Notes: generated by a model from the sequence alone, not told the origin. A stretch of DNA of 64,000 nt from Candidatus Woesebacteria bacterium RIFCSPLOWO2_01_FULL_39_61 (GCA_001793155.1 MGHI01000026.1:271-64270), one strand, 5' to 3'. Shown: positions 25,716 through 46,473, counted from the stretch's first letter. A program made the numbers and translations.

Positions 25716-27062
25716 TTAGGTATTAATCGGAAGGCTGAAGGTAAATTTCGTGCCCGTACCATATATTGACTCAACAGAAATTTTTCCGCCGAGTAGTTCT
25801 ACAATTTGTTTAGTTATCCAAAGCCCAAGTCCTGTCCCTCTTACTTCATTCGTTTGCTTGTCTTTTATTCTGTGAAACTTGGTAAAAAGATTTGGGATTT
25901 CATCTCCCGGAATCCCGATACCTGTATCTTTTATCATTACCTCGATAAATTTATCTTTGAGACTTACTGCAATATCAATCTGTCCTTTCAATGTATATTT
26001 GGCAGAATTCGAGACTAAATTTGTTACAACCTGACGAATACGGTTAGGGTCACTTTTGATAAGTGGAAGGTCTATCGGTGTAAAGTTAATCACCAATCCT
26101 TTTTGGGCGGCACTCGGGATTAAGAGCTTAATAACATTCCCAACAATCTCATTTATATTAGTTTCTACAATCTCTACCTTTAATCTTCCTTGCTCGATGC
26201 GTGATACATCAAGTAAGTCATTGATTAGGTTATTCAAATCCCCTATCAAAACATTCAATATCTCCAGATCGTCCTTTATTTTCTCCTTCTCGGAAGGAGA
26301 AATTTCACCACTAAGCATTTCCAAATAACCGACGAGGGCAGTAACAGGAGCACGAAGTTCATGCGCGGCCATGGAAATGAATTCGTCTTTCAATCTGTCT
26401 AGCTCTTCCAACTCCCTTGTTCTTTCTGCCTTTTTGTAAAAGATAAAGTGGTTTATTAGAAGCGCTAAAGTGACCAAGGTGAGAATCGCCAAAATGATAT
26501 AAGAATCTTTTGAAGTTCTTCCTAAAATTTCCTCAACCGTGTCAGTTTTAAGCTTTATAAATAGTAGGTAGTTACCCTCTCCTTCGATTCCTTCTAAAGG
26601 AATCGATACGTTCCAAATATTTTTGCCTATGTTCGGATCGTAGGTTAGCCCCGCAAACGGCTGATTAAATCCCAGTGCGAGGTGATTGAGGCCGGATTTT
26701 TTTAAATCCTCTAAGTTACTTGAACTTTCGGTTGTCGAAACTACGTTAAGTTTGCTTCCGCTCTCGCTAAATACGGTTATTCCTAAAATTTCAGAGTTGG
26801 CCTCAACGCTGCTAAATAAAAGTGCTGTTAAGTCTTCCTGATTAGCAATACTTCTTGAAATTGCTGGTTTGAGGGTATCTGCCGTACTTACTGCCTGATG
26901 ACGAATTAAAAAATTGACGTCGCGGTTAAAAGTCCTTAAATTCCAAAAAGTGTTGATTATCAGTAAAAGTGGAATCGAAATAATAATGATAAGGGGATAG
27001 ACAATAGATGCCGGTTTTCCCAAACTCTTTATCTTATTGATTATCTTTGAAATGAGTATCAT
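25716..27062 (-). CDS. Sensor histidine kinase with an extracytoplasmic sensor domain
   Basis: ISMAAHELRAPVTAL H-box. GTGLGLWITKQIV G2 box. Two TM helices bracketing an extracytoplasmic domain of about 150 aa. Confidence 0.85.
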   Translation of the reverse strand: MILISKIINKIKSLGKPASIVYPLIIIISIPLLLIINTFWNLRTFNRDVNFLIRHQAVSTADTLKPAISRSIANQEDLTALLFSSVEANSEILGITVFSESGSKLNVVSTTESSSNLEDLKKSGLNHLALGFNQPFAGLTYDPNIGKNIWNVSIPLEGIEGEGNYLLFIKLKTDTVEEILGRTSKDSYIILAILTLVTLALLINHFIFYKKAERTRELEELDRLKDEFISMAAHELRAPVTALVGYLEMLSGEISPSEKEKIKDDLEILNVLIGDLNNLINDLLDVSRIEQGRLKVEIVETNINEIVGNVIKLLIPSAAQKGLVINFTPIDLPLIKSDPNRIRQVVTNLVSNSAKYTLKGQIDIAVSLKDKFIEVMIKDTGIGIPGDEIPNLFTKFHRIKDKQTNEVRGTGLGLWITKQIVELLGGKISVESIYGTGTKFTFSLPINT

Positions 27063-31216: not shown

Positions 31217-32854
31217 ATGAAGCTACCCGAACTGGAAGAACCAGTTGCCTATTTTTGTAGCGAATTTGCACTAGATAATGAACTTCCTATATATTCCGGT
31301 GGGCTTGGTATACTCGCCGCGGACATACTAAACGCCGCCGCCTTACAACATTACCCAATGGTCGGAATAGGAATTCTCTATAAGGGTAAGGAGTTCATGC
31401 AGCATATAACCGCTGACGGAAAGGAAGAAAAACGCGATTCAGAATTTGATCACGATACTTCATTTTTAAGACCGACGACTGTAAACGGTGAAACCATAGT
31501 TTTTACCCTGCCTTTGGAAAACCAGGAAGTTAAAGTAAAATCCTATCACTTTAGACTTTCGGATAAAACGATTGTTTTTCTTCTATCAACAGACATCGAT
31601 GGAAATCCTCCCGAGTGGATTAATGACATGAATAAGCTTTATGGCGGAGATATGAACAGCCAATTGCGACAACAAATACTTCTGGGAGTGGGTGGAGTTA
31701 TGTTATTAAATACACTAGGAATCAGACCGCGAAAATATCACATAAACGAAGGAAGATCGGCATTTCTTATTTTCGAAGAAACCCATATCCTGATGAAAGA
31801 GGAAGACCTTTCTTTTGAAGCGGCCTGGGCGAAAGCTAAACAAAAAATTGTCTATACCAACCATACTCTGATAGCTGCAGGAAATCCTACTTACTCGCCG
31901 GAGTTGGTTAAGGATTGGATAAAATCTATTGCCAATAAGCTCGGTGTGGAAACCGAATCGCTTATTAAATATGGACTTCAAGATTCTCAATCTTTTAGCA
32001 TTACCCTTTTTGCTCTCAATACTTCTGCAAAACAATCTGCCGTCAGCAAAGTTCATGGCGAATATGCCCGAAGGGATTGGCCTGACTATAACTGGATAGC
32101 TATAACCAATGGTGTACACCTTCACCGCTGGCAGGATAGTGATTATCGGCACCCAGATCTAACCGATCAGGAATTATGGAGTGAGCATTTGGTCAAGAAA
32201 CAAGAATTGGTAGACTCGGTAATAAAACGCACAGGATTTGGGTTTGATCATAAAAGACTTATCATCTCTTGGGCAAGAAGACTGGCTGAATATAAACAAC
32301 CAACCGCGATATTTTCCGACATTCAAAGGTTAAAAAGGATACTTTCTAATCCCGACCGTCCGGCTCAACTTCTTTTCGCGGGAAACTCTCACTCCGCTGA
32401 TCCTAATGCGAAATCCATCATCGAAAATATAATTAAAATTTTTTCTAAAGATCTATCAGGTTACGCAATTTTTGTCCCGAACTATAATATATCTTTGGCC
32501 AACCATCTCGTCTCCGGAAGCGATATCTGGCTAAATACTCCCAAAGGCACGCTGGAAGCTTCGGGCACCTCGGGCATGAAGGCTCTTGCCAATGGAGTTT
32601 TAAATTGCACTGTCATAGACGGCTGGACCTATGAAGTCGACTGGACGGATATAGGTTGGACACTTGACCCCAAAAATATAGCCGAGAGTTTCTATAATAC
32701 TCTTGAAAATGAAATTCTCCCTTTATATTACAAAAGGGGCGCCGACGGACTTCCTTATGATTGGATAAAGAGAATGAAAAAGTCTATAGAGATTTCGCCG
32801 AAATTTTCTGCCGAAAGGGTACTTGAAGATTATAAGAAGTATTTATATAGTTAA
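31217..32854 (+). CDS. Alpha-glucan phosphorylase (GT35 family, short archaeal/bacterial type)
   Basis: EASGTSGMKALANG PLP-lysine motif. 545 aa. Confidence 0.8.
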   Translation: MKLPELEEPVAYFCSEFALDNELPIYSGGLGILAADILNAAALQHYPMVGIGILYKGKEFMQHITADGKEEKRDSEFDHDTSFLRPTTVNGETIVFTLPLENQEVKVKSYHFRLSDKTIVFLLSTDIDGNPPEWINDMNKLYGGDMNSQLRQQILLGVGGVMLLNTLGIRPRKYHINEGRSAFLIFEETHILMKEEDLSFEAAWAKAKQKIVYTNHTLIAAGNPTYSPELVKDWIKSIANKLGVETESLIKYGLQDSQSFSITLFALNTSAKQSAVSKVHGEYARRDWPDYNWIAITNGVHLHRWQDSDYRHPDLTDQELWSEHLVKKQELVDSVIKRTGFGFDHKRLIISWARRLAEYKQPTAIFSDIQRLKRILSNPDRPAQLLFAGNSHSADPNAKSIIENIIKIFSKDLSGYAIFVPNYNISLANHLVSGSDIWLNTPKGTLEASGTSGMKALANGVLNCTVIDGWTYEVDWTDIGWTLDPKNIAESFYNTLENEILPLYYKRGADGLPYDWIKRMKKSIEISPKFSAERVLEDYKKYLYS

Positions 32855-33282
32855 CTGCCTCTCCCAAGATATTTTTTAACCTTCTCTACAACCTGTTCCG
32901 GGGTTTGCATCGCTTTAACCAAATATTCCTTTACACCGAGTTTTAAGGCCCTTTGTCTTTCCTCCTCTTCCGCCAGGTTGGTGAGGGCAACAACCGGGAT
33001 ATTTACTCCCTTGGCATTTTGTCTCAAGTGTTCCAAAAAATCAGTGCCGGACATTCGGGGCAACATGATGTCCAAGAGAATAATATCCACCTGATTTTTC
33101 AAAGAGACGTCTAAAGCTTCTTCCCCGTCTTTTGCGTTGAGGACTTTAAACCCCTCAAAAGTAAATTTCTCGGTGTACATCTTTAAAAGAACCGGGTCGT
33201 CTTCGACTATCAAAATTACTTGTTGGTTTTTATCAACAGCTGGTTGTACCTGTTGGTCAGTGGGCGGTTGTGTGTTATCCAT
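32851..33282 (-). CDS. Single-domain response regulator (CheY-like receiver)
   Basis: ILIVEDDP…LDIMLPRMSG…KEYLVKA receiver motifs. No output domain. Confidence 0.8.
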   Translation of the reverse strand: MDNTQPPTDQQVQPAVDKNQQVILIVEDDPVLLKMYTEKFTFEGFKVLNAKDGEEALDVSLKNQVDIILLDIMLPRMSGTDFLEHLRQNAKGVNIPVVALTNLAEEEERQRALKLGVKEYLVKAMQTPEQVVEKVKKYLGRGS

Positions 33283-33413
33283 ATTTAACTCACTTAATCT
33301 TAAGTAAAATCGTTCTCTTTTTCAAACTGTAAAAAATTAACTTGAACAATGTTACCATACTATTATCCCTTGTTCGGGTTAAATTAGCACTACCATAATA
33401 TTATAGAAAATTT

Positions 33414-33509
33414 CAAGAAGACCACGGGCTTCAGCCCGTGGATGAATTGAACTTTTATATGTCATCCTCCTTAGGGAAACCCCGCCTTTTAAGGCGGGGA
33501 GGATGTCAT
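33414..33509 (-). repeat. Structured repeat element, copy C (minus orientation)
   Basis: The reverse complement reads ATGACATCCTCCCCGCC-TTAAAA-GGCGGGGTTTCCCT…GGATGACATATAAAAGTTCAATTCATC-CACGGGC-TGAA-GCCCGTG-GTCTTCTTG. It is colinear with copies A and B. Confidence 0.5.
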
Positions 33510-33564
33510 TAATCTTGTCTTTTTATTTTAACTTCGAGTACAATTGACTTAGGAAACGGTATTT

Positions 33565-34185
33565 ATGAAAAAAATACAAATTATTTTAGTTATTTTAGCT
33601 TCCACCACTCTTCTTTTTCTTTTTAAAAATAAAGTTTTGGCTTCGGATGGAACTGTTGAGCTGAGAAGCACTCAAGGAACGGATTCGCGTTGCTTCGCTG
33701 CATCTTTGCTAATGGAGGATTTGGCTTATACGATATTAGTAAGCTGTAGAGATCTAATTTATCCGGGAGAATTCGGGCTTATTAATTATGCCCTCTGGGC
33801 TCAACCCACGGACGGAACTAGCACGGTTTTTCTGGGATTGCTCGGTTACGGAAAGTCTACCGTCAGAATCGCTAAACCTTTCAATAGTTTATTTGTGACC
33901 ATTGAAAGCCAAATTGGGGCTACTCCGACTGGTAGGGTGGTAATGCGGGGAAATGTTTCACCGGTAACTTTCTTGGATAGACCGACTACAGCAACTCCTA
34001 CACCCGGCGAGGAAACAAAACAGGGTGAAGAACAAACACAAGAAGGCGAACAGGAACAAGAGCAACAACCTCAATCCACAAGAGACAAACTTTTCCTTGC
34101 CTTAAGGCGCGCGGGCATTGCGGCACTCATCGCACTTGTAGCCTTAATCGGATTAATCTTCGTAGTCACCAGAGCAAGAGGATAA
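33565..34185 (+). CDS. Hypothetical secreted protein with an acidic Gln/Glu-rich linker and a C-terminal TM anchor
   Basis: Signal peptide. -35 TTGTCT / -10 TACAAT promoter. RBS AGGAAA upstream. Confidence 0.4.
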   Translation: MKKIQIILVILASTTLLFLFKNKVLASDGTVELRSTQGTDSRCFAASLLMEDLAYTILVSCRDLIYPGEFGLINYALWAQPTDGTSTVFLGLLGYGKSTVRIAKPFNSLFVTIESQIGATPTGRVVMRGNVSPVTFLDRPTTATPTPGEETKQGEEQTQEGEQEQEQQPQSTRDKLFLALRRAGIAALIALVALIGLIFVVTRARG

Positions 34186-34192
34186 TTAATTG

Positions 34193-35764
34193 CTATTCTG
34201 CCAAGGATAATTCAAACCAAAAGATACTTCCTTTACCAGCTTCGGAATCAACGCCAATTTTACCGTTAAATTTCTCCACCAAAAGTCTTGAAATATAAAG
34301 CCCTAAACCGGTTCCTGTAGTTTTTCCAACATTGGTTTCAACTCTGTGGAATTTTTGAAAAAGCTTTTGCTGTTCTTCCTTGGAGATTCCCGGACCGGTA
34401 TCAACCACCTCGCAGCGGACAGTAGTCGCATCCGGTTGGGAAAGTCGGAGAATAACCGACCCTTGGTCGGTATACTTTATGGCATTACTCAAAAAATTTC
34501 CTATTACTTCCTGAATTCTGTCAGGATCAACTTTGACTCTATCTTTAATTTCGTTTGGAATTTCTAACTCGTACTTTAGACCCTTTCTCTGCGCCTCAGG
34601 AGCAAACTGACTAAACACCGCCCGTGCTGCTTGCGACAAATTCTCTACTTCAACTTGATAAACCATTCTTCCTTCCTCAATCCTGGAAACATTGAGCATG
34701 TTATTAACAAGCCTAACCAGCCTGTCGGTAATATTATTGGCGTCGGCCAAAAAACCACGGGCTTTTTCGGGAATGTCTCCAGTATCCCCCTCCATAACCA
34801 TCGAGACGTACCCCTTTATAGCCGTCATCGGCGCACGAAGCTCATGTGCAGCCATGGAAATAAATGTATCTTTCTGAGCATCAAGGACTTTAAGCCTCTC
34901 AGTTAATTCCGCAAGTTTCTGTCTTTGTTTGACCTCATCCATCACACTCTTTACCAACAAAATCCCAAAAAGAACAACCATAGCAAAAGTAAAAATATCA
35001 ACTAAAGCTTCCGAAAAGGAGCGGGCTAAAAATATTCTGGAAAATAAAACTACCCAAATCACTGTAGTTAAAATTTGTGCCGCTAAGATTTTAATCTTAA
35101 AAAGCTCGTGTTTAACGATGGCATAGGTTACTGATGCAACGAGAATAATGGTAAATAGTGGCCCGGATGGAACTAAGGAAGTTATATTAAAGAAATTAAC
35201 AAGCACGAAATTCGTGATCGTTGCAAGTATAAAAGTTACCGATATTCCGCCAATCAGGAATTTAAGTTGAGATTTCTCTTTGCCTTCACTGACTCGGAAT
35301 TTACGGTAGAGGGTATAAATAGTTAAACCCAAAAATAAAAAGACGTTAAGCGCAAAAAGAGGTAAGGCTGGACCTGGAATCGGAGCAACAAGACCATTTT
35401 TAATTTCCACACTTACAAAAACAAAGGATAAACCAACTAATATTTGAATTGTTAATACAAAAACTATAATTGCAAATAATACTTTTTTTGAAAGGGTAAG
35501 TTGTTCATATGGAAACGCTTTTGAGAGTAAAAAAAGTGTAGGAAACATTGCAGCAGTTAGTATCATAATTACCTTCAGCCAGATAAAAACTACTGAAAGC
35601 GGATAATTCTGTACAGAAAAGTAATTACTCAAAGCCCAGAAAGATAATATTATAGTCAGGATAAAAAATATTTTGTTAGTTGCACTTTTCCGGTTACTTA
35701 CAAAAGATGTAAAGCCTAAAAGTAGGTTACTTATAATAACGATAAGTGTTAAAATAAGAAGCAT
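34193..35764 (-). CDS. Sensor histidine kinase with a polytopic (about 7 TM) N-terminal sensor
   Basis: ISMAAHELRAPMTAI H-box. GTGLGLYISRLLV G2 box. Confidence 0.85.
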   Translation of the reverse strand: MLLILTLIVIISNLLLGFTSFVSNRKSATNKIFFILTIILSFWALSNYFSVQNYPLSVVFIWLKVIMILTAAMFPTLFLLSKAFPYEQLTLSKKVLFAIIVFVLTIQILVGLSFVFVSVEIKNGLVAPIPGPALPLFALNVFLFLGLTIYTLYRKFRVSEGKEKSQLKFLIGGISVTFILATITNFVLVNFFNITSLVPSGPLFTIILVASVTYAIVKHELFKIKILAAQILTTVIWVVLFSRIFLARSFSEALVDIFTFAMVVLFGILLVKSVMDEVKQRQKLAELTERLKVLDAQKDTFISMAAHELRAPMTAIKGYVSMVMEGDTGDIPEKARGFLADANNITDRLVRLVNNMLNVSRIEEGRMVYQVEVENLSQAARAVFSQFAPEAQRKGLKYELEIPNEIKDRVKVDPDRIQEVIGNFLSNAIKYTDQGSVILRLSQPDATTVRCEVVDTGPGISKEEQQKLFQKFHRVETNVGKTTGTGLGLYISRLLVEKFNGKIGVDSEAGKGSIFWFELSLAE

Positions 35765-35814
35765 ATTTTCATTGTACCTCCTAAATCAGAAAAATAAACT
35801 GCTCAAAAGTAAAC

Positions 35815-36978
35815 TTGCAATATAATTTTGACTATTTTGAATCTCAAAATATGGGCGGTGAATTTCTACAAAAACGCACAGTATCAAGGGCTTGGCCTTC
35901 GGTTGAGATTCATGCTATTCAGTATAATTCTGACAATTATTCAGCTTGGGAAATTGAACCGTTAAAAGACTTCGAAGAGAAAACTTGGAGAGAAACTGCC
36001 AAACATTTGGTTGGTTGGGCCACCCTTGCACCGAGCGCGCACAATAAACAGCCATGGATCGTGCAATTAGACGAAAACGAAAGACACCTGTTGATACAGC
36101 CAGATCCTGGTGAGATTGGAGCAGCTTCGGACAAAGAAGGCAGACAAACACACGTGGGTATTGGATGTTTTGTCGCGAATTTATCTCTCGCTATGGGATC
36201 ATACGATATACCGGTAACTTATAAGTTGATAGAATCTCGAAATCAAAAAAAAGACATTGCATCAGTAGTATTTGATTTGAGAGACATCCAAAAAGGACAT
36301 CTGAAAAATCCCCAAGTGTTAGAATACCTCCGTATGAGACGAGCCTATCGAGGACCGTTTGTCGAAGGTTTTGATTTACCAGAACCTTTACTGCGACAAA
36401 TGGAAGAAATAAGCGAAAATGAAGGGGTAACCTTACGGATAATACGTGATCAGGGAAGAAAAAATCTTTTAGGTAAAGCCCAAGCGTTGGCAGATATGGC
36501 GGTACTTAAAATTCCCGCCTTCCGAAACGAATTAGCCAGCCATCTGGTTGTAAACGATTCTACTCAAACAAAGGTTATGCCGGGAAATACGTTTGGGTTA
36601 AATGACCAGGAAGCCCGAGAAGTGCATGATGCGCTTAGCTCATCTGCGCAGATGCCTGGTCATTTTGCTGCCGGATTTCCAAGATCTGACCAGGAAGGTG
36701 TAATAAAATCATCCGCAGTCCTAGTAATATTGGCTGACGAAAAGAAACCTCAATATTTTGTTCGATCGGGTGTTGCTCTCGAAAAATTATGGCTTTATGC
36801 ACAAGCCAACGGATTAGGAGTACGTATTATGGCGGGTATGATCGAAAGTCCTTTACATAACCTGGGATTAAAAAAAATATTGGGTGAAAAGTCAAAACAA
36901 CCGACGGTGTTAGCTTGTGTTGGACTGCCAGAAAAGGATACCTGGCCTAAATCTCCCCGAGAACAAATCATCTTTTAG
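35815..36978 (+). CDS. Nitroreductase-family flavoprotein (enlarged or two-lobed)
   Basis: APSAHNKQPW and RMRRAYRGPF, the nitroreductase-fold signature motifs, in a 387-aa protein. Confidence 0.65.
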   Translation: MQYNFDYFESQNMGGEFLQKRTVSRAWPSVEIHAIQYNSDNYSAWEIEPLKDFEEKTWRETAKHLVGWATLAPSAHNKQPWIVQLDENERHLLIQPDPGEIGAASDKEGRQTHVGIGCFVANLSLAMGSYDIPVTYKLIESRNQKKDIASVVFDLRDIQKGHLKNPQVLEYLRMRRAYRGPFVEGFDLPEPLLRQMEEISENEGVTLRIIRDQGRKNLLGKAQALADMAVLKIPAFRNELASHLVVNDSTQTKVMPGNTFGLNDQEAREVHDALSSSAQMPGHFAAGFPRSDQEGVIKSSAVLVILADEKKPQYFVRSGVALEKLWLYAQANGLGVRIMAGMIESPLHNLGLKKILGEKSKQPTVLACVGLPEKDTWPKSPREQIIF

Positions 36979-38440
36979 TGGTTTCTGTGTGATGACCAGA
37001 TGTTTGAATCGCGGTTTCCCCCTTTTCATCGTCATACAGTTCCCTATATACATTTCCGGACCGGTCAATATGTGTTAATTCGACTCGAAAATCCGAGTCT
37101 ACCAAAATCGCCTCATGTGTCATGGTACCTTCAAAGGGTCTTTGAGTATCTCTTGTTAAAACCCACGTATCAAAATACTTTCTTTGATATTCTGTAATTT
37201 GAGTGCCTGAGCGAAGATCCACGAAGTGTCTGTTTGGCTGTTCCCATCCTAATAGAACCGAAGCCATGTGCAAAGCAGTGTGACTGGCGCCTCCTTCGGA
37301 CGCTATGGAAGTCTGGGGAATTCCCTTTGTAAAAGGAGTTCGATTTCTTTGATTTATAAAATCAGCGAACTCGGGATCATTTTTCCAGTGATTGCCCACC
37401 AGCGAAAATGCAAAATCGAAGAATAACTCTCTATTTGCGGGATTATTTTTCCATGCGTCCCTTGCTGCTAAGAGCTGTCCATCGCTCATACCAATTGCCA
37501 AAGGAAAATCAGATATCCTATCATACGGAAAATATTCAACCTGGAATGTTTTACCAAAATCGGTTAGTCGCCATAGGGGTATTCCACTCTCTTTGCATAT
37601 TTTTCCTACATCAATTTTTCTGTCGGGATCATCACACACCTCAACTGCCATGGTTACTGGCGGTTCACCCAGACTTTCGTTACCTAACATAAAATCTGAT
37701 ATGTTTTTTGGATAAACTCCAACTGAATAGACGGATACAGGAAGCCACGGATCCGTGGCGTGAATTTGTTTTGCAGCGACCTCCGCTTTGTTCTGATTTA
37801 AATCCGCATAACCAAATCGGACCCTATTTCTATTCGCGTCATCAAAAACATCCGGATCGGCTACTTTCATCCAGGAAGGTAAAAGCACATCCCGTGTTCT
37901 TTCAAAAATATTCATTCCGACACTGCCTCCTACAACACCGATAACCTGATTTCCTAAAAGTTCTCTTTGTTTTTCCCAAGAAATATTTTGTTCGGGATCT
38001 TTGAGTTGAATTTCATTTCTTGCCAGCCAGGCTAACAGTTTTAAGTCTCTTGGCGCAAACCAAACCAAGTCGTTTCTTTCAGGATAGTAAACAAGCTCCC
38101 CATATCTAAGTCTACGAATTTCACCTCCACTCTCTATTAAAGCTTCCTCGTACTTGTCTTTCTCGCTATTAAATACCTCTTCATATGAGGATCCCGGTGT
38201 AAGATTTCCCAAGAGAGCATTAATCGTCGGCTCTATACGATCAAGTTGTCTATCTGGAGATATTTTTATCTGTTCACCAGCCGGAAGAGTGATAATCGCA
38301 TTACCGGTTCGAGTCCATCTCACTTTATCTGAATCAACAGCTTCATTAACCGAACCTAAAATGAAAGGCTTGGCGGAATAGTTTAAATAAGGATTCTCTA
38401 AACTTGGGGCAAGCTCGGTTCCACTTTCAACTATAGACAT
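36968..38440 (-). CDS. E1-like / ThiF-MoeB-family adenylyltransferase with N- and C-terminal extensions
   Basis: Gly-rich loop VIGVVGGSVGMN. ADPDVFDDANRNRV aligns with ThiF DDDDVHLSNLQRQ. A Lys 12 aa later. VEVCDD and TDFGKT align with ThiF CTDN/GFGG. TAA/ATG-coupled to the upstream gene. Confidence 0.7.
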   Translation of the reverse strand: MSIVESGTELAPSLENPYLNYSAKPFILGSVNEAVDSDKVRWTRTGNAIITLPAGEQIKISPDRQLDRIEPTINALLGNLTPGSSYEEVFNSEKDKYEEALIESGGEIRRLRYGELVYYPERNDLVWFAPRDLKLLAWLARNEIQLKDPEQNISWEKQRELLGNQVIGVVGGSVGMNIFERTRDVLLPSWMKVADPDVFDDANRNRVRFGYADLNQNKAEVAAKQIHATDPWLPVSVYSVGVYPKNISDFMLGNESLGEPPVTMAVEVCDDPDRKIDVGKICKESGIPLWRLTDFGKTFQVEYFPYDRISDFPLAIGMSDGQLLAARDAWKNNPANRELFFDFAFSLVGNHWKNDPEFADFINQRNRTPFTKGIPQTSIASEGGASHTALHMASVLLGWEQPNRHFVDLRSGTQITEYQRKYFDTWVLTRDTQRPFEGTMTHEAILVDSDFRVELTHIDRSGNVYRELYDDEKGETAIQTSGHHTETTKR

Positions 38441-38442
38441 AA

Positions 38443-39339
38443 TTAGTCAGAAACGGTCCAGGGAGCAAGATAAACTCTGGGTTGCTGGGAAGGATCTCCC
38501 TTAGGAAACCAATATTCTTTAAATTTATTTCTTATTCCAGTAGCATACTCACTTTCACTGGGCACAACCCCCTGTATTTCAACAGGGTTAATTCCGGATG
38601 ACACAACAAAATCTTCAACATGGGGAGCAAGAATAAAATAGGGATGGGTTACCCCACGATTTCTCAAGAGAGTCATTCCTTCCGGCCACATTTTTCTAAG
38701 TAACTCTCCTTTAAATTCTCTTGCCTTGTTACGCAGGTCACTATTTTCATTCCCACCAATAAAATCAAAAACAGGATGTAAACTAAACCTTGCAAGTTCA
38801 CCAGGCTGATTTGCAGTGACACCGTTTGTCGGAATCTCGGCTACATGCGGCCATTTATACGGATCCACGTTTTCAAATAATCTGAAAATATCCAAATCTT
38901 CACCGTGCACTACTCTGAAAGTTGCAAGCACAACACTTTCTTCACCAAGCTGATATTCTGCAAGAATAATTTTTGAATTTCCCTGAAAATCAAAGCTATC
39001 GGTGGCCATATCAATAACTTCCCCGCCATTTTTTACATACCTGGAGTTATAGGCAAAGTTAACTACGTCAGCAGATTGTTCACCCAAGGAAGACGTCCGA
39101 TCAACAGCTTTCAAATTGACTTTCGACGAAGTCAAAGTGACTTCTTTTTCCAATACAGGGGAAATTAATCTATCAAGTAAAACGAAAAGATCAGTTCCTT
39201 CGTATTTCTCTTTAAACCTTTCGTACATTGATCGGACATCTGCTAATGTTAAAGTTTTCTGGCCTGTAGATGACAACTGGTCTAAAATTTCATCAGGCGA
39301 AACGGGCCTTCCTAGATGCCTATCAATTTCGAGCGTCAT
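38443..39339 (-). CDS. Hypothetical 298-aa cysteine-free protein, translationally coupled to the E1-like gene (start revised to ATG 39339; the track TTG start lies in a terminator)
   Basis: No recognisable motif and no Cys residues at all. Its stop at 38443 lies 2 nt from the E1-like start. Confidence 0.45.
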   Translation of the reverse strand: MTLEIDRHLGRPVSPDEILDQLSSTGQKTLTLADVRSMYERFKEKYEGTDLFVLLDRLISPVLEKEVTLTSSKVNLKAVDRTSSLGEQSADVVNFAYNSRYVKNGGEVIDMATDSFDFQGNSKIILAEYQLGEESVVLATFRVVHGEDLDIFRLFENVDPYKWPHVAEIPTNGVTANQPGELARFSLHPVFDFIGGNENSDLRNKAREFKGELLRKMWPEGMTLLRNRGVTHPYFILAPHVEDFVVSSGINPVEIQGVVPSESEYATGIRNKFKEYWFPKGDPSQQPRVYLAPWTVSD

Positions 39340-39345
39340 AATAAT

Positions 39346-39371
39346 AAAAAAAACCGCCAACGTCGGCGGTT
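39346..39371 (-). terminator. Rho-independent terminator (minus strand) downstream of the XRE regulator gene
   Basis: AACCGCC-AACGTC-GGCGGTT hairpin followed by U8 on the minus strand. Confidence 0.6.
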
Positions 39372-39505
39372 ATAACTCGGAAGTTAATCCGAAAAAAACA
39401 AAAGGTGTAAAAAAAATAATTTCCACTCTATTTAGAAGGTAATTTTAGCAATAAACCGCCAAAAATGCGAGTAAGAATTAAAGAAGTCTCAAGGCTTAAA
39501 GAAAA

Positions 39506-40300
39506 TTATTTCTTTCCTTGAAAATACTTATAAGTTTCTATATCTTTGGGAACATATAACTCAATATAAAAACGCGGATCGTTGAATAATTGTGTCAAAA
39601 AGAAATAAAAATTTAATTTTTTTCCTTCCTTCGCCTTGATTGTTTTTTTTGCAAAATCAGCAATAAGAGGTCTTTCAGTCATTTTCTTTCGTACCTCTAG
39701 CCATACATCGTGAAATACAGAATTACCCATCATGTGTTTAATTAACTGCTGATACCAGTGTTCGTTGGTCCTTTGACGTTGCGCATGTTGAAATTGCATA
39801 AGTGTTTTAACCATAAACTCCCTTCGTTCCTTGCTTTCCGTAATATTTTGTGTTTTGTTTTGCGAAAAGTCAGGATCAAAAATAATATCAATTGTATGAG
39901 GAAAATATTTTTCTATTCCTTCCTGTTCTTTTAAAGAAACATTTAATGCCTTATAAAGCTTCTGATTTGCAGAAATAATTCTCCAGGTGTAGTCAAGCGA
40001 TGATGCTGGAAATTCCCAGTTGTTAACTATCGGATCAATCTTTTTTCGGGCCTCTTTTATGTCTTCAGCAGTCGGTAAATAATTTCCTATAACCAGTAAT
40101 TGGTTTTTTTCTTCCTCGGACAAGGTCATTGCGTCAATCAATTTATCGATTAGCTCTCTTGGGGGATTTCCGACCTTGCCTTGTTCTATCCGGGAAAGGC
40201 GCGAGGGTTCCTTCCATCCCAATGCAAATGCGATCTCCAATTGAGAGATGTTTTTCTGAAGCCTTAAATCCTTAATATAACCTCCGAGTGTTGCTGACAT
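39506..40300 (-). CDS. XRE-family HTH regulator with a C-terminal domain of about 190 aa of unknown function
   Basis: N-terminal LRLQKNISQLEIAFALGW…LSRIEQG helix-turn-helix. Confidence 0.6.
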   Translation of the reverse strand: MSATLGGYIKDLRLQKNISQLEIAFALGWKEPSRLSRIEQGKVGNPPRELIDKLIDAMTLSEEEKNQLLVIGNYLPTAEDIKEARKKIDPIVNNWEFPASSLDYTWRIISANQKLYKALNVSLKEQEGIEKYFPHTIDIIFDPDFSQNKTQNITESKERREFMVKTLMQFQHAQRQRTNEHWYQQLIKHMMGNSVFHDVWLEVRKKMTERPLIADFAKKTIKAKEGKKLNFYFFLTQLFNDPRFYIELYVPKDIETYKYFQGKK

Positions 40301-40348
40301 GATCTTAATCGAAAATTAGATATGCAAATCCATCAATCAAATTATTTT

Positions 40349-40365
40349 ATCAAATGCTATTTGAT
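40349..40365. promoter_or_regulatory. Perfect 7-3-7 palindrome ATCAAAT-GCT-ATTTGAT in the XRE / GreA-like divergent promoter (candidate operator)
   Basis: Sits about 55 nt upstream of the XRE gene start. Confidence 0.4.
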
Positions 40366-40389
40366 TTATCAACCATTAAACTATATTAA

Positions 40390-40662
40390 GTGAGTCAATT
40401 ACTTGACATGATTTATTGTATATGTTATTTTTGGAAAATGAAGAGTAGGCCGGTTATCCTCTACTCAAAGGTAACTGTTAGGGTAAATAACACTGAATAT
40501 ATTTTTAAACTTGTGCGTTCTGACGAAATAAATATTACCCAAGGAAAGATTTCAATCGAAGCGCCCTTGGGAAAAGCACTTTTAAACAAAAGGGCAAAAG
40601 AAAAAGTTTGGGTAAAAACGCCAATCGGAAAAACAAAATATCAAATTATTGCAATTGATTAG
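40390..40662 (+). CDS. GreA/GreB C-terminal (FKBP-like) domain protein, stand-alone
   Basis: GKISIEAPLGKALLNKRAKEKVWVKTPIGKTKYQIIAID closely follows the GreA C-terminal pattern (ISxxSPLxxALLGKxxGDxVxVxxPxGxxxYEIL). No N-terminal coiled coil. The start may be ATG 40438. Confidence 0.55.
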   Translation: MSQLLDMIYCICYFWKMKSRPVILYSKVTVRVNNTEYIFKLVRSDEINITQGKISIEAPLGKALLNKRAKEKVWVKTPIGKTKYQIIAID

Positions 40663-40817
40663 TACTTTAAACAAATAAATCGATTTTTTAAGAAAACCGC
40701 GAAGATTTTACGGTTGTTTTAAGAAATTGAACCATTATTCGCTCTTTGACAAATAAATAATAATAAGTTGAAGAGCCTGCACACTATTTGTATCAACCTT
40801 CGTGATATTATGGGTAT

Positions 40818-41510
40818 ATGAATATAAAACTTTTCGATAAAAAATACTTTCTGACTTTTCTTGCAGCTGTGGTTGTGATTGTACTTTCTGTCGTAATCAC
40901 ACAAGACCTTGGTTCGTTAAAAAATAAACCAGAAATTTCATCAGCACAAAAATCACTTTCAGTTGAAGAAAATGTTCAGGTGAATAAAAATGACCCAGAA
41001 TCGCCCAACTTTTATACTGAAACACGAATTTACAAGAGTCCTGCAGTTACTGGAGTAGATAATAAAAAGAGAGCATTTACATTACATCTACCGGAAGGTT
41101 GGAGCATTGAAAAAGAAAATACTGATAGTGGGTTCTACATTTCTTTCAAAAAAGATAACTCGATGATAATTATAAGCGAGTATGGAGAAGGTGGAAATTG
41201 TATCTTCCCTGAACATGAAAGTATCGGTGAATTCGGATATGTCCGGATGGACAACTATAAAAATATTGAAACAAGCTTTGGAACTTATAGAATAGGCAAA
41301 AGATATGAAGCACGTTACAATGATGTTTTTTTCAATCTATGCAGAAAAGTAATTACTAAAGATCCGTACACTGATTCGCCATGGCATTTCGGCACACAAA
41401 TTGGTTATATAAATTACAGTACGAAAATTGAAGACGGTAAAAATTACGATCCCGAGATAGTCCAAGAAATGGAAAACATCATCAAAAATATTCAAGTGAT
41501 AGAAAAGTAA
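40818..41510 (+). CDS. Hypothetical secreted protein
   Basis: Signal anchor. No motif. Confidence 0.4.
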   Translation: MNIKLFDKKYFLTFLAAVVVIVLSVVITQDLGSLKNKPEISSAQKSLSVEENVQVNKNDPESPNFYTETRIYKSPAVTGVDNKKRAFTLHLPEGWSIEKENTDSGFYISFKKDNSMIIISEYGEGGNCIFPEHESIGEFGYVRMDNYKNIETSFGTYRIGKRYEARYNDVFFNLCRKVITKDPYTDSPWHFGTQIGYINYSTKIEDGKNYDPEIVQEMENIIKNIQVIEK

Positions 41511-41589
41511 TATTTTTAGGTAAACTCTCCTTTCCCCTCATTTTTACCTATACAACAGCATTCTTCTTATAAATATTGTTGTATGGGCA

Positions 41590-41790
41590 AAAACCCATAA
41601 GCTCTTTAACAAGTGAAGATTGTGTGTAAATAAGTTGTAAGAAGTTGGAAGTAAGCAGTAAGAAAAGAATAAATCTAAAGTTCACAAACCAAAAGGGGGT
41701 TTGCTGTGAACGCAAAACCAGGTAGTCAATTACAACTGAATACTTCAGGGGGCAAGAAAACACTACGGTCAGTTTTCCATTCTTACGCCG
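41590..41790 (+). repeat. Leader repeat, copy 1 (ATAAGCTCTTTAACAAGTGAAGATTGTGTGT…GTTCACAAACC…TGTGAAC…TTACAACTGAATACTTCAGGG)
   Basis: Shares three blocks with 43232..43400. It carries an internal insertion of about 50 nt. The GTTCACA/TGTGAAC stem is conserved. Confidence 0.45.
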
Positions 41791-41925
41791 CAAAGCGGCA
41801 AGGAGAGAATAAAATGATAGTCTTTAGAAGAAGGTTCAAGATTTGGTTTTTCTAACAATCTTGACATCTGAAGTACTGATAACCCTCTTACGAATGGGAA
41901 GCATAGTTACATAATAATATATAAT

Positions 41926-43152
41926 ATGAAGCAGATTATGAAAAAAACAGAAAATACGAAGTCAAAAATACTCTACAAGAAGAAATTTTTTTTATTGGTT
42001 ATTCTAACTGTATTTGTATTTGGGGGGCTGGTCATTTTTAGATTTGGTAGGGGCGAGCAGAGACAGGAATTTCCTCTTCAAGTAGTCAACGAAGCAATCC
42101 TAACAGGAAATTGCACAGAAACTACCGATTGTGTTTTGACACTTTTATCTCCGAATGGAGCAACAAAGGAGCTAGAAAACGTTTTTTCTTTTAAGAAAGA
42201 TACACCTGTTTATTTACTTCCGAATGGGAAAACTTTGGTTTATTTATCGGAAAATGAGGGGGTTGGCATTGTGGATATTTTAAATAAAAGAAGAATCTTA
42301 ATTCCCAATACTCAGCAGGCAAAGTTATTGCAAAGGTACTCAGACAGTTTTTGGATTGATAATGAAAATCAAGTTGAACTTTATGATTTAGAAGGTAAAC
42401 AAAAAGTATCTATCAAGAAAAACTTATTACCTAATTACGAAGAGAGCAAAGACTTTAGACCACCATCATTAAGTCCTTTATATTCAAATAAAAAGATTCT
42501 TGCTATAACTGGAGCTAAAGGCGAAGGCTTCAGCACAACTACTCTTTGGGAAGTATTCTCTGAAAAAAGATCAACTAAACTTAAAAGTAAGGACACTTTT
42601 ATGAATGCCTGCGGCGATGAGGAATGTGTTTCTAATGAAATTTACTTTTTAAACACACAGGCCGGATATCTAGTAATTGTAAACCACAACGATCGCTCGA
42701 CATCTTGGACAGAGGTGTATAAATTATTTCCAGATGCTAGTAGGGAAAGTTTCGCACTTAACGAACTTGTTAACTCTTCACTATCTCCTTGGGATGGCGT
42801 AATTTTATCTAACGACGACAATAAATTGTATTACGTGCAAAATGGTGTAATTAATGCGGGAGATGGGATCAGTAATTCAAGAAATTTTATATATGAATAT
42901 AACCTTGAGAGTGGAAAGCTTAAAACAATCCTTGAATTCGAACTACCTTCAGGTGGAAGCAATTACTTCAGTCCATTAACCCTCTCGCCAACTGGAAGTT
43001 ATATGCTACTTAACGATTCTCGCCCCGATGAAAAGGATATCCGTCATAATTTCTATACTATACTAGTGATAAATGATGGTGAATTAAAAAGTAACTTAGA
43101 CCCACTTCTTGAAGGGAAGAAAATCATCGGATGGGTAAATACCGAAGACTGA
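41926..43152 (+). CDS. Hypothetical secreted protein, possibly beta-propeller (TolB/PD40-like)
   Basis: Signal anchor. Repeated blade-like segments (…KLYYVQNG…, …SPTGSYMLL…). Weak. Confidence 0.35.
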   Translation: MKQIMKKTENTKSKILYKKKFFLLVILTVFVFGGLVIFRFGRGEQRQEFPLQVVNEAILTGNCTETTDCVLTLLSPNGATKELENVFSFKKDTPVYLLPNGKTLVYLSENEGVGIVDILNKRRILIPNTQQAKLLQRYSDSFWIDNENQVELYDLEGKQKVSIKKNLLPNYEESKDFRPPSLSPLYSNKKILAITGAKGEGFSTTTLWEVFSEKRSTKLKSKDTFMNACGDEECVSNEIYFLNTQAGYLVIVNHNDRSTSWTEVYKLFPDASRESFALNELVNSSLSPWDGVILSNDDNKLYYVQNGVINAGDGISNSRNFIYEYNLESGKLKTILEFELPSGGSNYFSPLTLSPTGSYMLLNDSRPDEKDIRHNFYTILVINDGELKSNLDPLLEGKKIIGWVNTED

Positions 43153-43231
43153 GAATAACGGTCTCCAATTAACTGGCGATATAATCAGCCTATGCGTAAG
43201 TGTCTTATCTAAAGATATTTACGTATGGGCT

Positions 43232-43400
43232 AAATAAGTCCATAAAGCTCTTTAACAAGTAAAGATTGTGTGTTGAAAAAATGTTCACAAACCAAATGGA
43301 GGTGTGCTGTGGACAGAAAAGGTAAGATCCAAAACTTACAACTGAATATTTCAGGGAGTAACGAGAATCAAGATTTCACCAACCAGAGTTCTAGATACAA
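43232..43400 (+). repeat. Leader repeat, copy 2
   Basis: ATAAAGCTCTTTAACAAGTAAAGATTGTGTGT…GTTCACAAACCAAATGGAGGTGTGCTGTGGAC…TTACAACTGAATATTTCAGGG. Confidence 0.45.
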
Positions 43401-43413
43401 AAGGAGAACTTCG

Positions 43414-46400
43414 ATGTTTAAGAAAGTCACGCACGTTGTAATTTCGATGGTGTTGATACTGCTTTTCTTTCCGCACGACACCAACAGAGTGCAGGCAGCT
43501 CAGACTATCCGTCTGCCTTTTCCACCACTTTATAGCTACAACCCAGCAAATGGTTCTTTTAGCCAAAACAGAGTTCCAATTACAGATGCTTGCCAAGATG
43601 GACAGGGCGCAGCTGGAACTCACATCGAGCACACCCGTAATGCTAGGTTTGCGGTTGATTTCGGAATGAGAACTGGAACTCCTGTTTACGCTCCTGTTTC
43701 GGGAGACGTCGTCTATGCTGCTTATACAGCCGGTTACGGTCTACTAATGCGTATTAGAGAAAGTAGCGAACGGGAACATTACTTGGCTCATCTCTCAAAG
43801 TTCTATGTAACGAGTGGGCGTGTCAACCAAGGTGATCTTGTAGCTCTATCTGGTGAGACAGGAAAAGGTCCTGCACATCTACACTACCATGTTCAAAAAC
43901 CAGGCGGCGGTACCGCTATTCAAGACGCGGACGATGTTCGTGATGAGCTACCAGGAATTAACTGGATCGATTCTAGCGACTACTGTAATCAAGGTGGTGC
44001 GATCGATGGGACAGCTCATGCATCACCACTCCCAAATGGCGGTTCTCCAGCCAATAATTGTGCCGAGTTTTACAACCAAGGGCGTCCCGGTGTATGGGGA
44101 TTTGACGCTCCGAACTGCCAGGGCAACGTTGTTTTTGGTTCCCTATCTGACGGGACAAATTTCAACTTGGCACAGAATAATGTCAATGATCGTTTGCGAT
44201 CTATTTCTGCACGACCAAATCTGCATTTCTGGCTCTACGCCCACACAGACAGCGAATCCTTGAAGCACTGCCATGAAAAGGATATGTGGAATCTGGATAC
44301 AGACAACTATAACTTCACAACAACTGATATGATAGGTTGGGATTCAGATTACGACAAGCAAAATGTCGGTGGCGGAGAGTTAGTTAGTACTGGCTACAAC
44401 ATGGTCTCCCGTCTAAGGGTCGTAACCGAAGCGTGTCCCCAGAATCAAGGTAGCAGAGTGCAGGCTTACGAAATAAGCACTGGCTACGGAATAGGCGGCG
44501 GAGGCGATATTACTTCTCCTGAAACTTCTGCTTCCTTTATAGGAACTGAGGGCAATAATAACTGGTATGTTTCGCCGGTTACGGTTGTTCTCTCTGCCTA
44601 TGATGAATTTGATGTGGCACATACTTACTACCGTATTAATGGCGGAAACATCACTGAGGGAACAAGCTTCTCTCTCGATGTAGAAGGAATCTACGCTGTA
44701 GAATTCTGGTCAGAAGACTCGAGTGGTAATGTAGAATCCACAAAATCCGTCCCAGTTAAGATTGACTGGACACCTCCGGAAACCACCTGTGAAGTTTTAG
44801 GTTCTCGCGACATGCTCGGAATTTTCCGCAGCCCCGTTGACAACACATGTTCGGCAACGGATAACTTATCCGGACCGGACTACACGGAATACTCGTTCGA
44901 CAACGGCAACACCTGGAACCTTTATGGTGGAGTTTTCACCTTAAGTGATAACGGCGTCTACGAGTATCTTTTCCGAAGTGTTGACATTGCCGGAAACGTT
45001 GAAGATGCAAAACCCTCCGGGGTTATCGACATCAAGCGCTTTGTCATCTTGACGAATTCGCTGACAAGTAACAGCGCAACCACCCTCCAGACTTTGGGAG
45101 TGGCCCACACAAATGGGAATGCGGGTTTTACTAATAACAATACAGTCCACCTGCAAACCCTTGAGTACTTAGGCCAGTTTACCCAATCGGGTAATGTGTC
45201 TTTCACCATCGATAACCTGGTTCAATCAAGTCAAGTGGAAACTTTACCGCTCTATCCTTTAAGTTTCTACAGAGATGTCTGCACGTTCATACCAGGACCG
45301 ATCATTGACCGTTCCACATCTCGAACTTACAACGAATGTTGGTATGTAGACGGCGACATTACTCTGGAAACTACGGGTTCAACTGGAAATCTCACGATTA
45401 TCAGTGAAGGAGTAATTTACGATAGAAGCACCAATTCGCATCTATCAGCCTGGGATACTACTAATGGAATCCTTTACTACGCTCGCCGAGGATATGTAAC
45501 CGAGTCGGGAGGAGCCGTCTATAACGGGGTTATTTACGCTCCGTACTCAAGTGTAAGCGGTCCGTTTACCAACTCAACACTCTCTGGTGGAATATTTGCC
45601 AACAACCTGAGTTTGAGCGCCGGTACGAGTTTGAGTGCCCAGCAGGCTGCCGGTTTCCCCCCGTCGACCTATCCTCTACCGCTTATCGCTGTCGAGCAAC
45701 CTGTACCTAACATTATCTATGTTAGCTCGATGGGCGGCGGAACTGTCGGTGGAATTGCGACAGCTGACGAGGACATCCTAACCTATAACCGCGAGCAGGG
45801 TAGCTACGCAATGTTCATCGACGGATCGGATATAGGACTTTCCTATACGGATATTGACGCCTTCTTTGCGTTACCAGATGGGACCTTCCTGATGAGCTTT
45901 GATTCGAGCATAAGTGTCAGTCCTTTGGGAACTGTCTATTATGCCGACATCGTCCGCTTTACCCCAACCTCGCTCGGATCTACCACCGCGGGTACTTTTG
46001 AATGGTACTTTGACGGATCAGACGTTGGTCTTACAACAAGCGACGAGGATATTGATGCAATCGGCTTTACTCCCCACGGTAAACTCGTAGTCAGCACCTT
46101 AGGCTACGTAAGCGTCACTGGTGTTTCCGGTAACGACGAAGACTTAATCGTCTTTACGCCAACCAGTTTGGGAGCAAACACCGCAGGAACCTGGGCTTGG
46201 TACTTTGACGGATCAGACGTCGGCTTGAATGAATCCTCTTACGAGGATATCAACGGCATCTGGATTGACCCAGTCACCGGACAAATCTACCTAACTACGG
46301 TAGGATCCTTTAGCGTTAGCGGCTTAAGTGGCGACGGAGCGGATATTTTTATCTGTACACCCAGTTCTTTGGGATCAACCACTGCCTGTACTTACGGCCC

Positions 46401-46473
46401 GGGACTTTACTGGGACGGATCGAAGAACGGCTTTTCCGGAAAAGTTCTCGACAGCGTCGTAGTTCAAAAGTAA
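43414..46473 (+). CDS. Secreted M23-family metallopeptidase, about 1019 aa, with C-terminal novel repeats (start revised to ATG 43414 with the RBS AAGGAGA)
   Basis: Signal peptide MFKKVTHVVISMVLILLFF. M23 motifs HIEH…D and HLHYHV. Four C-terminal repeats of about 60 aa (TPTSLGSTTAGTxxWYFDGSDVGL…). Confidence 0.75.
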   Translation: MFKKVTHVVISMVLILLFFPHDTNRVQAAQTIRLPFPPLYSYNPANGSFSQNRVPITDACQDGQGAAGTHIEHTRNARFAVDFGMRTGTPVYAPVSGDVVYAAYTAGYGLLMRIRESSEREHYLAHLSKFYVTSGRVNQGDLVALSGETGKGPAHLHYHVQKPGGGTAIQDADDVRDELPGINWIDSSDYCNQGGAIDGTAHASPLPNGGSPANNCAEFYNQGRPGVWGFDAPNCQGNVVFGSLSDGTNFNLAQNNVNDRLRSISARPNLHFWLYAHTDSESLKHCHEKDMWNLDTDNYNFTTTDMIGWDSDYDKQNVGGGELVSTGYNMVSRLRVVTEACPQNQGSRVQAYEISTGYGIGGGGDITSPETSASFIGTEGNNNWYVSPVTVVLSAYDEFDVAHTYYRINGGNITEGTSFSLDVEGIYAVEFWSEDSSGNVESTKSVPVKIDWTPPETTCEVLGSRDMLGIFRSPVDNTCSATDNLSGPDYTEYSFDNGNTWNLYGGVFTLSDNGVYEYLFRSVDIAGNVEDAKPSGVIDIKRFVILTNSLTSNSATTLQTLGVAHTNGNAGFTNNNTVHLQTLEYLGQFTQSGNVSFTIDNLVQSSQVETLPLYPLSFYRDVCTFIPGPIIDRSTSRTYNECWYVDGDITLETTGSTGNLTIISEGVIYDRSTNSHLSAWDTTNGILYYARRGYVTESGGAVYNGVIYAPYSSVSGPFTNSTLSGGIFANNLSLSAGTSLSAQQAAGFPPSTYPLPLIAVEQPVPNIIYVSSMGGGTVGGIATADEDILTYNREQGSYAMFIDGSDIGLSYTDIDAFFALPDGTFLMSFDSSISVSPLGTVYYADIVRFTPTSLGSTTAGTFEWYFDGSDVGLTTSDEDIDAIGFTPHGKLVVSTLGYVSVTGVSGNDEDLIVFTPTSLGANTAGTWAWYFDGSDVGLNESSYEDINGIWIDPVTGQIYLTTVGSFSVSGLSGDGADIFICTPSSLGSTTACTYGPGLYWDGSKNGFSGKVLDSVVVQK

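Follow-up and report, generated by a model that had tools for sequence, protein, structure and literature searches.

A candidate split, highly divergent oxazolone-type N-acyl-amino-acid pathway in a Candidatus Woesebacteria genome

What does a ThiF/E1-like enzyme act on when the genes beside it encode a protein without cysteine and a nitroreductase-fold protein? A 64,000-nucleotide stretch of DNA (the window) from Candidatus Woesebacteria bacterium RIFCSPLOWO2_01_FULL_39_61 (GCA_001793155.1, MGHI01000026.1:271-64270) raises this question. An initial annotation of the window had suggested that these genes might form a new E1-dependent modification system or a small-molecule ligation module. The second suggestion fits our analysis, and the first does not, as the trio matches the known oxazolone-synthetase architecture of OxzAB, TyzACB and TrzAS. 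We conclude that the three genes probably encode a split, highly divergent N-acyl-amino-acid pathway of this oxazolone type, with chemistry, substrates and product as suggested by the characterised homologs. We denote the partner gene A, the ThiF-like gene B and the nitroreductase-fold gene C, and we compare them with related metagenomic contigs (loci L001 to L015 and a JGI contig).

38443..39339, minus strand: gene A, 298 aa from ATG (305 aa from a TTG at 39360), with an N-terminal helical extension of about 70 aa; a predicted GNAT N-acyltransferase resembling FeeM and N-acyl-homoserine lactone (AHL) synthases, with the predicted role of an N-acyl amino acid synthase analogous to TyzA, TrzA and OxzA.
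36968..38440, minus strand: gene B, 490 aa, ThiF/E1-like; a predicted ATP-dependent carboxylate-adenylating cyclase analogous to TyzB and to the N-terminal domain of TrzS.
35815..36978, plus strand: gene C, 387 aa with a TTG start; a nitroreductase-superfamily flavin-dependent oxidase (FDO), Acg/FDO in type, predicted to be analogous to TyzC and to the C-terminal domain of TrzS.

The five open reading frames (ORFs) placed in this region by the initial annotation (these three, an XRE-family gene and a GreA C-terminal-domain gene) were all recovered at the same coordinates. The deposited NCBI annotations of the three proteins are hypothetical or generic (OGM25120.1, OGM25121.1). Gene A precedes gene B on the minus strand and the two are joined by TAA-TT-ATG, the translationally coupled arrangement originally described; this tight junction is peculiar to the Woesebacteria window, and the gap between A and B ranges from 13 to 142 nt at other loci. 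Genes B and C converge, and their 3′ ends overlap by 11 nt, as first reported.

The E1 adenylation core read from the sequence of gene B is borne out by a Pfam ThiF match (E = 2.8e-7) and by its motifs: the glycine loop (GVVGGSVG), DPDVFDDANRNR and the lysine motif (NKA) are present, together with VEVCDDPD. When the protein is aligned with TrzS homologs and its clade relatives, G171 and S173 of the glycine loop, D195, N203, R206, N217, K218 and D270 are invariant, and gene B is in these respects an oxazolone-type ThiF protein with an intact ATP-binding and adenylation motif. D270, within VEVCDDPD, would be the Mg/ATP-binding aspartate of ThiF and MoeB and is probably equivalent to D217 of TrzS, a correspondence that we infer. 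The best NCBIfam family for gene B is NF005901, "Rv1355c family protein" (722 positions), which it matches over positions 66-239 (E = 4.3e-22). Residues 162-307 align by BLASTP with residues 99-236 of a TrzS homolog from Mycolicibacterium (P0008) at 34% identity over 146 aa (E = 1e-17). A search of PDB sequences with the gene B protein returned no match. Nor is this a known housekeeping ThiF or MoeB protein free of linkage to the partner gene: the ThiF, MoeB and UbaA equivalog models reach E values of 6e-4 or worse, and the A-B linkage is conserved.

The two extensions of about 150 aa each that had appeared unrecognisable in gene B are for the most part accounted for. ThiF domains of the TrzS type can be aligned with residues ~60-160 and ~300-410, and only the outer segments (~1-55 and ~415-490) are clade-specific, being limited to the closest relatives and absent in P0005, P0006 and the L005 protein. 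Elsewhere in the window, a 415-aa protein (6143..7390, minus strand) resembles MoeZ/MoeB models in their rhodanese-domain part alone (E = 3.6e-12); it has no ThiF domain and is unrelated to gene B.

Gene A encodes no cysteine in its 298 residues, as originally noted. Neither the protein nor its family profile gave a meaningful match in sequence and profile searches of Pfam, NCBIfam and the PDB. Word-indexed protein searches retrieved only three non-self relatives, and only five proteins with a 65-sequence profile of the family. A family of 78 members, mostly 230-310 aa, emerged when 1.84 billion cluster representatives (50% identity) were searched exhaustively with a profile. Scanning with the partner alignments found no member on GTDB genome contigs and only two close loci on metagenome contigs. 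The AlphaFold2 model built from the 65-sequence alignment (A4) has a predicted local distance difference test score (pLDDT) of 89.7 and a predicted template modelling score (pTM) of 0.86; an earlier model from three sequences (pLDDT 49.7) was discarded, and only the 65-sequence model was used.

This structure prediction, which the initial annotation had called for, removes the description of the partner as a protein with no recognisable motif. The best structural matches are FeeM and LuxI-type AHL synthases (PDB 2g0b, 1ro5, 3p2h), at 10-12% sequence identity, which places a GNAT acyltransferase fold of the FeeM/LuxI kind directly beside the ThiF gene. Pfam FeeM is matched by 7 of the 65 family members and Acetyltransf_5 by 6 of the 65. 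The gene A protein is about 100 aa longer than FeeM and the LuxI-type synthases, which act alone or with acyl carrier protein (ACP), not with ThiF and FDO proteins. It also contains GELARFSLHP, an ExxRF strand motif that we take to resemble the ExxR motif of the LuxI family.

Gene C has the nitroreductase fold originally assigned to it (Pfam Nitroreductase and TM1586_NiRdase). Its best NCBIfam match is the Acg family FMN-binding oxidoreductase (E = 2.4e-42), its only solved relative is Acg (PDB 2ymv, E = 4.5e-7), and no SagB-type family is among its NCBIfam matches. It also matches NF005901, at positions 365-651 (E = 6.3e-22), and its residues 35-337 align by BLASTP with residues 333-634 of P0008 at 23% identity. 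Genes B and C therefore match the two halves of one ThiF-flavin-oxidase fusion model, and the convergent pair corresponds to a split form of that fusion. An Acg/FDO-type gene adjoins the ThiF gene in this way, convergent with it, across all loci with the order A→B←C. The Rv1355c model is also matched by five more C variants and by the B variants of L005 and L015 (B positions 44-335; E up to 2.7e-34 in clade relatives).

The neighbourhood of the trio is conserved, and the proposal that A, B and C act as one module is supported both by this linkage and by a natural partner-ThiF fusion. The order A→B←C is found at at least 8 independent contigs (L001/L013, L002, L003, L005, L011/L012, L015 and the JGI contig), across which identity to the window proteins drops to 20-29% for A, 31% for B and 25% for C. 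The fusion, P0068 (L009 5001-7217, 738 aa), joins a FeeM-like partner domain (residues 16-288) to a ThiF domain (residues 467-580); a HisKA_7TM histidine kinase gene follows directly, and there is no FDO gene before the end of the L009 contig. At L004, a ThiF-like gene stands opposite a convergent ORF of unscanned family. At L010 (1517-5990), a distant A homolog (P0091) is divergent to genes for a 544-aa fatty-acid-CoA ligase and a ThiF protein of 465 aa, Rv1355c-like, which matches the Rv1355c model weakly (E = 1.1e-8, positions 107-223); a seven-transmembrane (7TM) histidine kinase and a response regulator follow, and no FDO is present. The ligase beside A and ThiF genes fits acyl-CoA-dependent chemistry, and L010 may encode a variant of the pathway that supplies its own enzyme for acyl activation.

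Comparison of the loci points to a mosaic in which B and C are co-inherited as a pair and reshuffled against A. L005 is close to the window in the histidine kinase (77% identity) and A (51%), but its B and C share just 31% and 25% identity with those of the window and instead resemble those of L015 (59% and 46%). As both B and C of L005 are of the L015 type while the kinase and A are window-like, the two appear to have been inherited together. L002 shows 68% identity to the window in B and 38% in A. The chromosomal position of these mosaic alleles is fixed, with the pilM cluster on one side and the histidine kinase gene on the other.

By analogy with characterised systems, the gene A protein would make an N-acyl amino acid by acylating an amino acid at its alpha-amino group, with acyl-CoA (or acyl-ACP) as the donor. 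The gene B protein would adenylate the carboxylate of this product with ATP, and attack by the amide oxygen would close a 5(4H)-oxazolone ring, a step that would require neither a ubiquitin-like protein nor a catalytic cysteine in gene B. The gene C protein would then desaturate the C-alpha/C-beta bond to form a conjugated N-acyl oxazolone.

The closest sequence family of both B and C is the NCBIfam "Rv1355c family". Rv1355c is TrzS, which together with the acyltransferase TrzA (Rv1356c) makes N-acyl tryptazolones; its ThiF domain carries out ATP-dependent cyclisation and its FDO domain O2-dependent desaturation, as shown experimentally, and TrzAS hosts include Mycobacterium tuberculosis, M. 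smegmatis and Rhodococcus (PMC12856293). As in the Woesebacteria window, the acyltransferase gene lies just upstream of the ThiF gene on the same strand (at actinobacterial trzAS loci an unannotated A gene immediately precedes the fusion gene), the A protein has no Pfam match in either case, and the adenylation-motif aspartate is conserved. TrzS differs in being a single fusion, whereas B and C are separate and convergently transcribed. Identity is 34% for B and 23% for C, and the window's A protein, about 50 aa longer and with its N-terminal helical extension, has no detectable similarity to TrzA homologs. The host is a mycolic-acid actinobacterium in one case and a bacterium of the Candidate Phyla Radiation (CPR) in the other.

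In its division into three separate proteins, the Woesebacteria trio is more like TyzACB (Rv2336, Rv2337c, Rv2338c) of M. tuberculosis, which makes N-acyl tyrazolones; the nearest structures to TyzA are FeeM and the AHL synthase BjaI (PMC10404671). By description, the two systems share a FeeM/AHL-synthase-like acyltransferase, a stand-alone ThiF-like cyclase and a monomeric Acg-like FDO of about 370 aa. They differ in that tyz B and C form an operon with A on the opposite strand, whereas in the window A and B are transcribed in the same direction with C convergent on B, and in that TyzB has 318 aa against 490 aa for the gene B product. OxzAB of Pseudoalteromonas rubra is the founding oxazolone synthetase (bioRxiv 10.1101/2020.06.11.147165; reviewed in PMC12596934). 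It is likewise described as an N-acyltransferase followed by ThiF and nitroreductase chemistry, and its A gene, too, lies upstream on the same strand; OxzB, however, is a ThiF-nitroreductase fusion, and its published range is the alpha-, beta- and gamma-proteobacteria.

Several observations weigh against this assignment. Woesebacteria are inferred to be anaerobic fermenters without fatty-acid synthesis. Desaturation in the characterised systems needs O2, and in a host presumed anaerobic and without fatty-acid synthesis it is doubtful what would serve as acyl donor and as electron acceptor. Profile comparison by hhalign of the A family (A1, A4) with two TrzA homologs from L006 and L007 (A3) gives a probability below 1%, a weak test given that the latter profile holds two sequences. 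On present evidence the gene A protein is best regarded as analogous to TyzA and TrzA by predicted fold and gene context, the homology demonstrated being that of the shared GNAT superfamily; the published oxazolone A proteins are themselves of low mutual identity (PMC10404671). Of the two models that gene C matches, Acg/Rv3131 and Rv1355c, the generic Acg-family model gives the better score (E = 2e-42, below that model's cutoff). FDO-A is the oxazolone-associated subgroup of FDOs and FDO-B includes Acg, Rv3127 and Rv3131; C may belong to either. Genes B and C reach 78.1 and 77.6 bits against the curated NF005901 cutoff of 476 bits, which is set for a single fusion of ~720 aa; the shortfall arises partly because each protein spans half of the model. 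By sequence, B and C are homologs of the two NF005901 domains and not equivalog members, and the A/B/C clade is known here from sequences and a predicted fold.

Alternatively, the same enzymes might lead to a different end product. In such a scheme the gene A protein would make an N-acyl amino acid and the gene B protein would adenylate it, and the acyl-adenylate would be captured by an external nucleophile (an amine, thiol or hydroxyl of a metabolite, lipid or protein) to give a lipoamino-acid derivative, whether N-acyl dipeptide-like, ester-linked or of another kind, while gene C served an unrelated redox step. What ThiF-like enzymes have in common is the adenylation step alone, and many different nucleophiles are used in the family (PMC12596934). 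The clade-specific segments of B (~1-55 and ~415-490) are without an assigned role, identity to the TrzS homologs is as low as noted above, and L010 combines A, ThiF and acyl-CoA ligase genes without an FDO. However, a tight convergent pair of ThiF and Acg-type FDO genes is a reported signature of oxazolone clusters (PMC10404671, PMC12856293), B and C vary together from locus to locus, and no further gene that could supply an acceptor is conserved in the neighbourhood, and we consider a different end product unlikely.

A protein- or peptide-directed E1 system, whether ubiquitin-like (Ubl) conjugation, sulfur-carrier activation, or maturation of a thiazole/oxazole-modified microcin (TOMM) or other ribosomally synthesised and post-translationally modified peptide with C as a SagB-like dehydrogenase, is largely refuted and has very little probability left. 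Gene B does have the ThiF fold, and TOMM systems also combine an E1-like protein with a nitroreductase-fold dehydrogenase. A PADLOC scan of B gave weak E1-E2 matches only (E = 4e-4 and 1.2e-3), confined to the Rossmann, nucleotide-binding region; it identified no defence system, and the only other match was a generic helix-turn-helix (HTH) match for the XRE protein. Yet no stop-to-stop segment of at least 40 aa within 33000..42000 ends in Gly-Gly, and the conserved partner is a GNAT acyltransferase rather than a beta-grasp protein, which answers the search for a ubiquitin-like fold proposed at the outset. Gene B has two cysteines, neither invariant, and no CxxC zinc site. With no conserved cysteine, no CxxC and no nearby Gly-Gly ORF, B is without the features of protein-directed E1 chemistry. 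Gene C matches Acg/FDO models and no SagB-type family. Among the scanned genes flanking the trio (32851..46473), we found no YcaO, JAB or E2 family; for YcaO, as for the others, this covers the flanking genes and is not an exhaustive scan of the whole window. The view that the locus is neither thiamine or molybdenum-cofactor sulfur transfer, nor a TOMM or Ubl system, holds on these grounds. That the three genes are mere neighbours of unrelated function (a ThiF paralogue with a housekeeping role, a nitroreductase for stress and an orphan protein) would accord with their hypothetical or generic annotations and with the weak sequence-level matches of each protein. The gene order, however, is kept in at least 8 contigs at identities down to 20-31%, and both an A-B fusion (P0068) and B-C fusions (the Rv1355c family) exist. 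Conserved linkage and fusions refute a chance arrangement, to which we assign next to no probability.

If the trio is an oxazolone-type pathway, as we favour, its neighbours may bear on the function of the product. Two signalling genes lie beyond gene C.

34193..35764, minus strand: HisKA_7TM histidine kinase (Pfam HisKA_7TM, HisKA and HATPase_c), a candidate pathway-linked sensor.
32851..33282, minus strand: receiver-only response regulator (Pfam Response_reg, E = 4.6e-25), downstream of the histidine kinase gene and a candidate partner of the kinase.

A histidine kinase gene with a homologous HisKA_7TM sensor flanks the module genes in 8 of the 8 loci where that side is visible. Its positions at the related loci are as follows.

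L002: 8136-10172.
L003: 3556-5679.
L005: 3905-4849.
L009: 7249-9321.
L010: 6055-8732.
L013: 8764-10359.
L015: 6871-8151.

The kinase gene is present even at distant loci whose genomic context differs; at L003, L009 and L010, A is only 20-25% identical to that of the window. Over ~230-260 aa, the window 7TM sensor domain is 39% identical to that of L009, 37% to L003 and 26% to L010; a control histidine kinase of the window matches the catalytic core only, not the 7TM sensor domain. A receiver-only response regulator often comes after the kinase, and in L002 and L010 a response regulator follows it. A signalling gene adjoins the biosynthetic genes at trzAS loci as well, where a GAF-GGDEF-EAL gene follows in place of the 7TM histidine kinase, and the authors of the Trz study raise a possible signalling role for the products (PMC12856293).

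It is conceivable, though doubtful, that A, B and C together with the 7TM histidine kinase (and the response regulator) constitute, in CPR bacteria, a small-molecule signalling circuit complete in itself, in which the N-acyl amino acid or oxazolone would be an autoinducer-like signal and the 7TM kinase its membrane receptor, in the manner of LuxM/LuxN. Under such a scheme, the reshuffling of deep B/C allelic types at a fixed position would amount to signal diversification. The adjacency of the kinase supports a signal-plus-sensor arrangement but does not establish it. Counting against it, the L005 sensor domain is 77% identical to that of the window though identity is just 31% for B and 25% for C; this small CPR genome is rich in histidine kinases, with three in the 64 kb (21187..22260, 25716..27062 and 34193..35764, all on the minus strand); and several of the loci bearing the kinase are related by descent.

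On the other side of the trio, the initial annotation had counted an XRE regulator, its operator palindrome, a terminator and a GreA C-terminal-domain gene as parts of the module; none of these was found at any related locus.

39506..40300, minus strand: XRE-family HTH protein, 264 aa (Pfam HTH_3 and HTH_31), with a C-terminal domain without assignment.
40390..40662, plus strand: stand-alone GreA/GreB C-terminal-domain protein, 90 aa from GTG (Pfam GreA_GreB).
39352..39371, minus strand: G+C-rich hairpin of 8 pairs (5 GC) with a T-run; a terminator of the XRE gene or a 5′-leader structure.
40349..40365, no strand assigned: perfect 7-3-7 palindrome ATCAAATGCTATTTGAT within a promoter-like site of the XRE gene.

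The features themselves were described correctly for the most part. HTH_3 covers residues 9-64 of the XRE protein, leaving a C-terminal ~190 aa without a match, and GreA_GreB matches residues 22-89 of the 90-aa protein (E = 1e-17). The latter may start from an ATG at 40438 (74 aa) and not from the GTG at 40390. Within the longer ORF lies a promoter-like site, TTGACA-17-TATTTT (40403..40431), from which an mRNA with almost no leader would be made. The operator-like palindrome is present as a single perfect copy within the minus-strand promoter-like site TTGATA-17-TAAAAT, and a third ATTTGAT half-site lies 6 nt downstream of it on the minus strand. Allowing up to 2 mismatches, the pattern has 2 matches in total, which is the chance level (mean 1.1; 2 or more in 26 of 100 shuffles), a comparison that says nothing about the single perfect copy. 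The one argument for a function of the palindrome is its place in the promoter-like site, and it is likely to be an autoregulatory operator of the divergent XRE and GreA C-terminal-domain pair.

The terminator said to separate the XRE gene cleanly from A and B is real as a hairpin with a T-run (39371..39352; AACCGCCgacgTTGGCGGTT followed by T8), but it is not a clean separator of transcription units: the T-tail stops 3 nt before the ATG of gene A, which leaves no room for a promoter between hairpin and gene. A GGCGGTT copy ~85 nt upstream (39454..39460, minus strand) might form an alternative structure by pairing with the hairpin's 5′ arm, though this may be chance. The hairpin upstream of gene A is not kept in 7 other loci, and with no Rfam match either, a riboswitch or attenuator before gene A was rejected. 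An Rfam mir-929 match at 39106..39147 is sub-threshold and due to chance.

We also rejected the XRE protein as a regulator of the pathway because tblastn detected no homolog in any related locus. In L002, L013 and L015, pilus genes directly precede gene A, and on this comparison of gene orders the XRE and GreA C-terminal-domain genes and their neighbours appear to be a separate, genome-specific insertion next to the module. Unlike in these three loci, gene A of the window is separated from the pilM cluster by ~8-9 kb of additional genes (39506..46473): the XRE and GreA C-terminal-domain genes, two ORFs of 230 and 408 aa without a Pfam match, and a gene for a Peptidase_M23 protein of 1067 aa. 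Other genes of the 64-kb window include type IV pilus genes, a copper ATPase, YifB and glucan phosphorylase.

CPR bacteria have minimal genomes and are generally credited with few specialised-metabolite genes and probably no fatty-acid synthesis. Oxazolone lipids were discovered between 2020 and 2025 and are documented in proteobacteria and mycolic-acid actinobacteria. Candidatus Woesebacteria is a host lineage not mentioned in the oxazolone literature cited here, and this locus would extend the host range of the pathway to it. The 78 representatives (at 50% identity) of the A family, so far without any annotation, could be annotated as FeeM-like. The evolution of the locus is unusual in that very divergent, reshuffled alleles are kept at a fixed chromosomal position. 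The adjacent 7TM sensor kinase offers a concrete signalling hypothesis for the function of these molecules, and the same functional question concerns the Tyz and Trz lipids of M. tuberculosis, which are linked to virulence.

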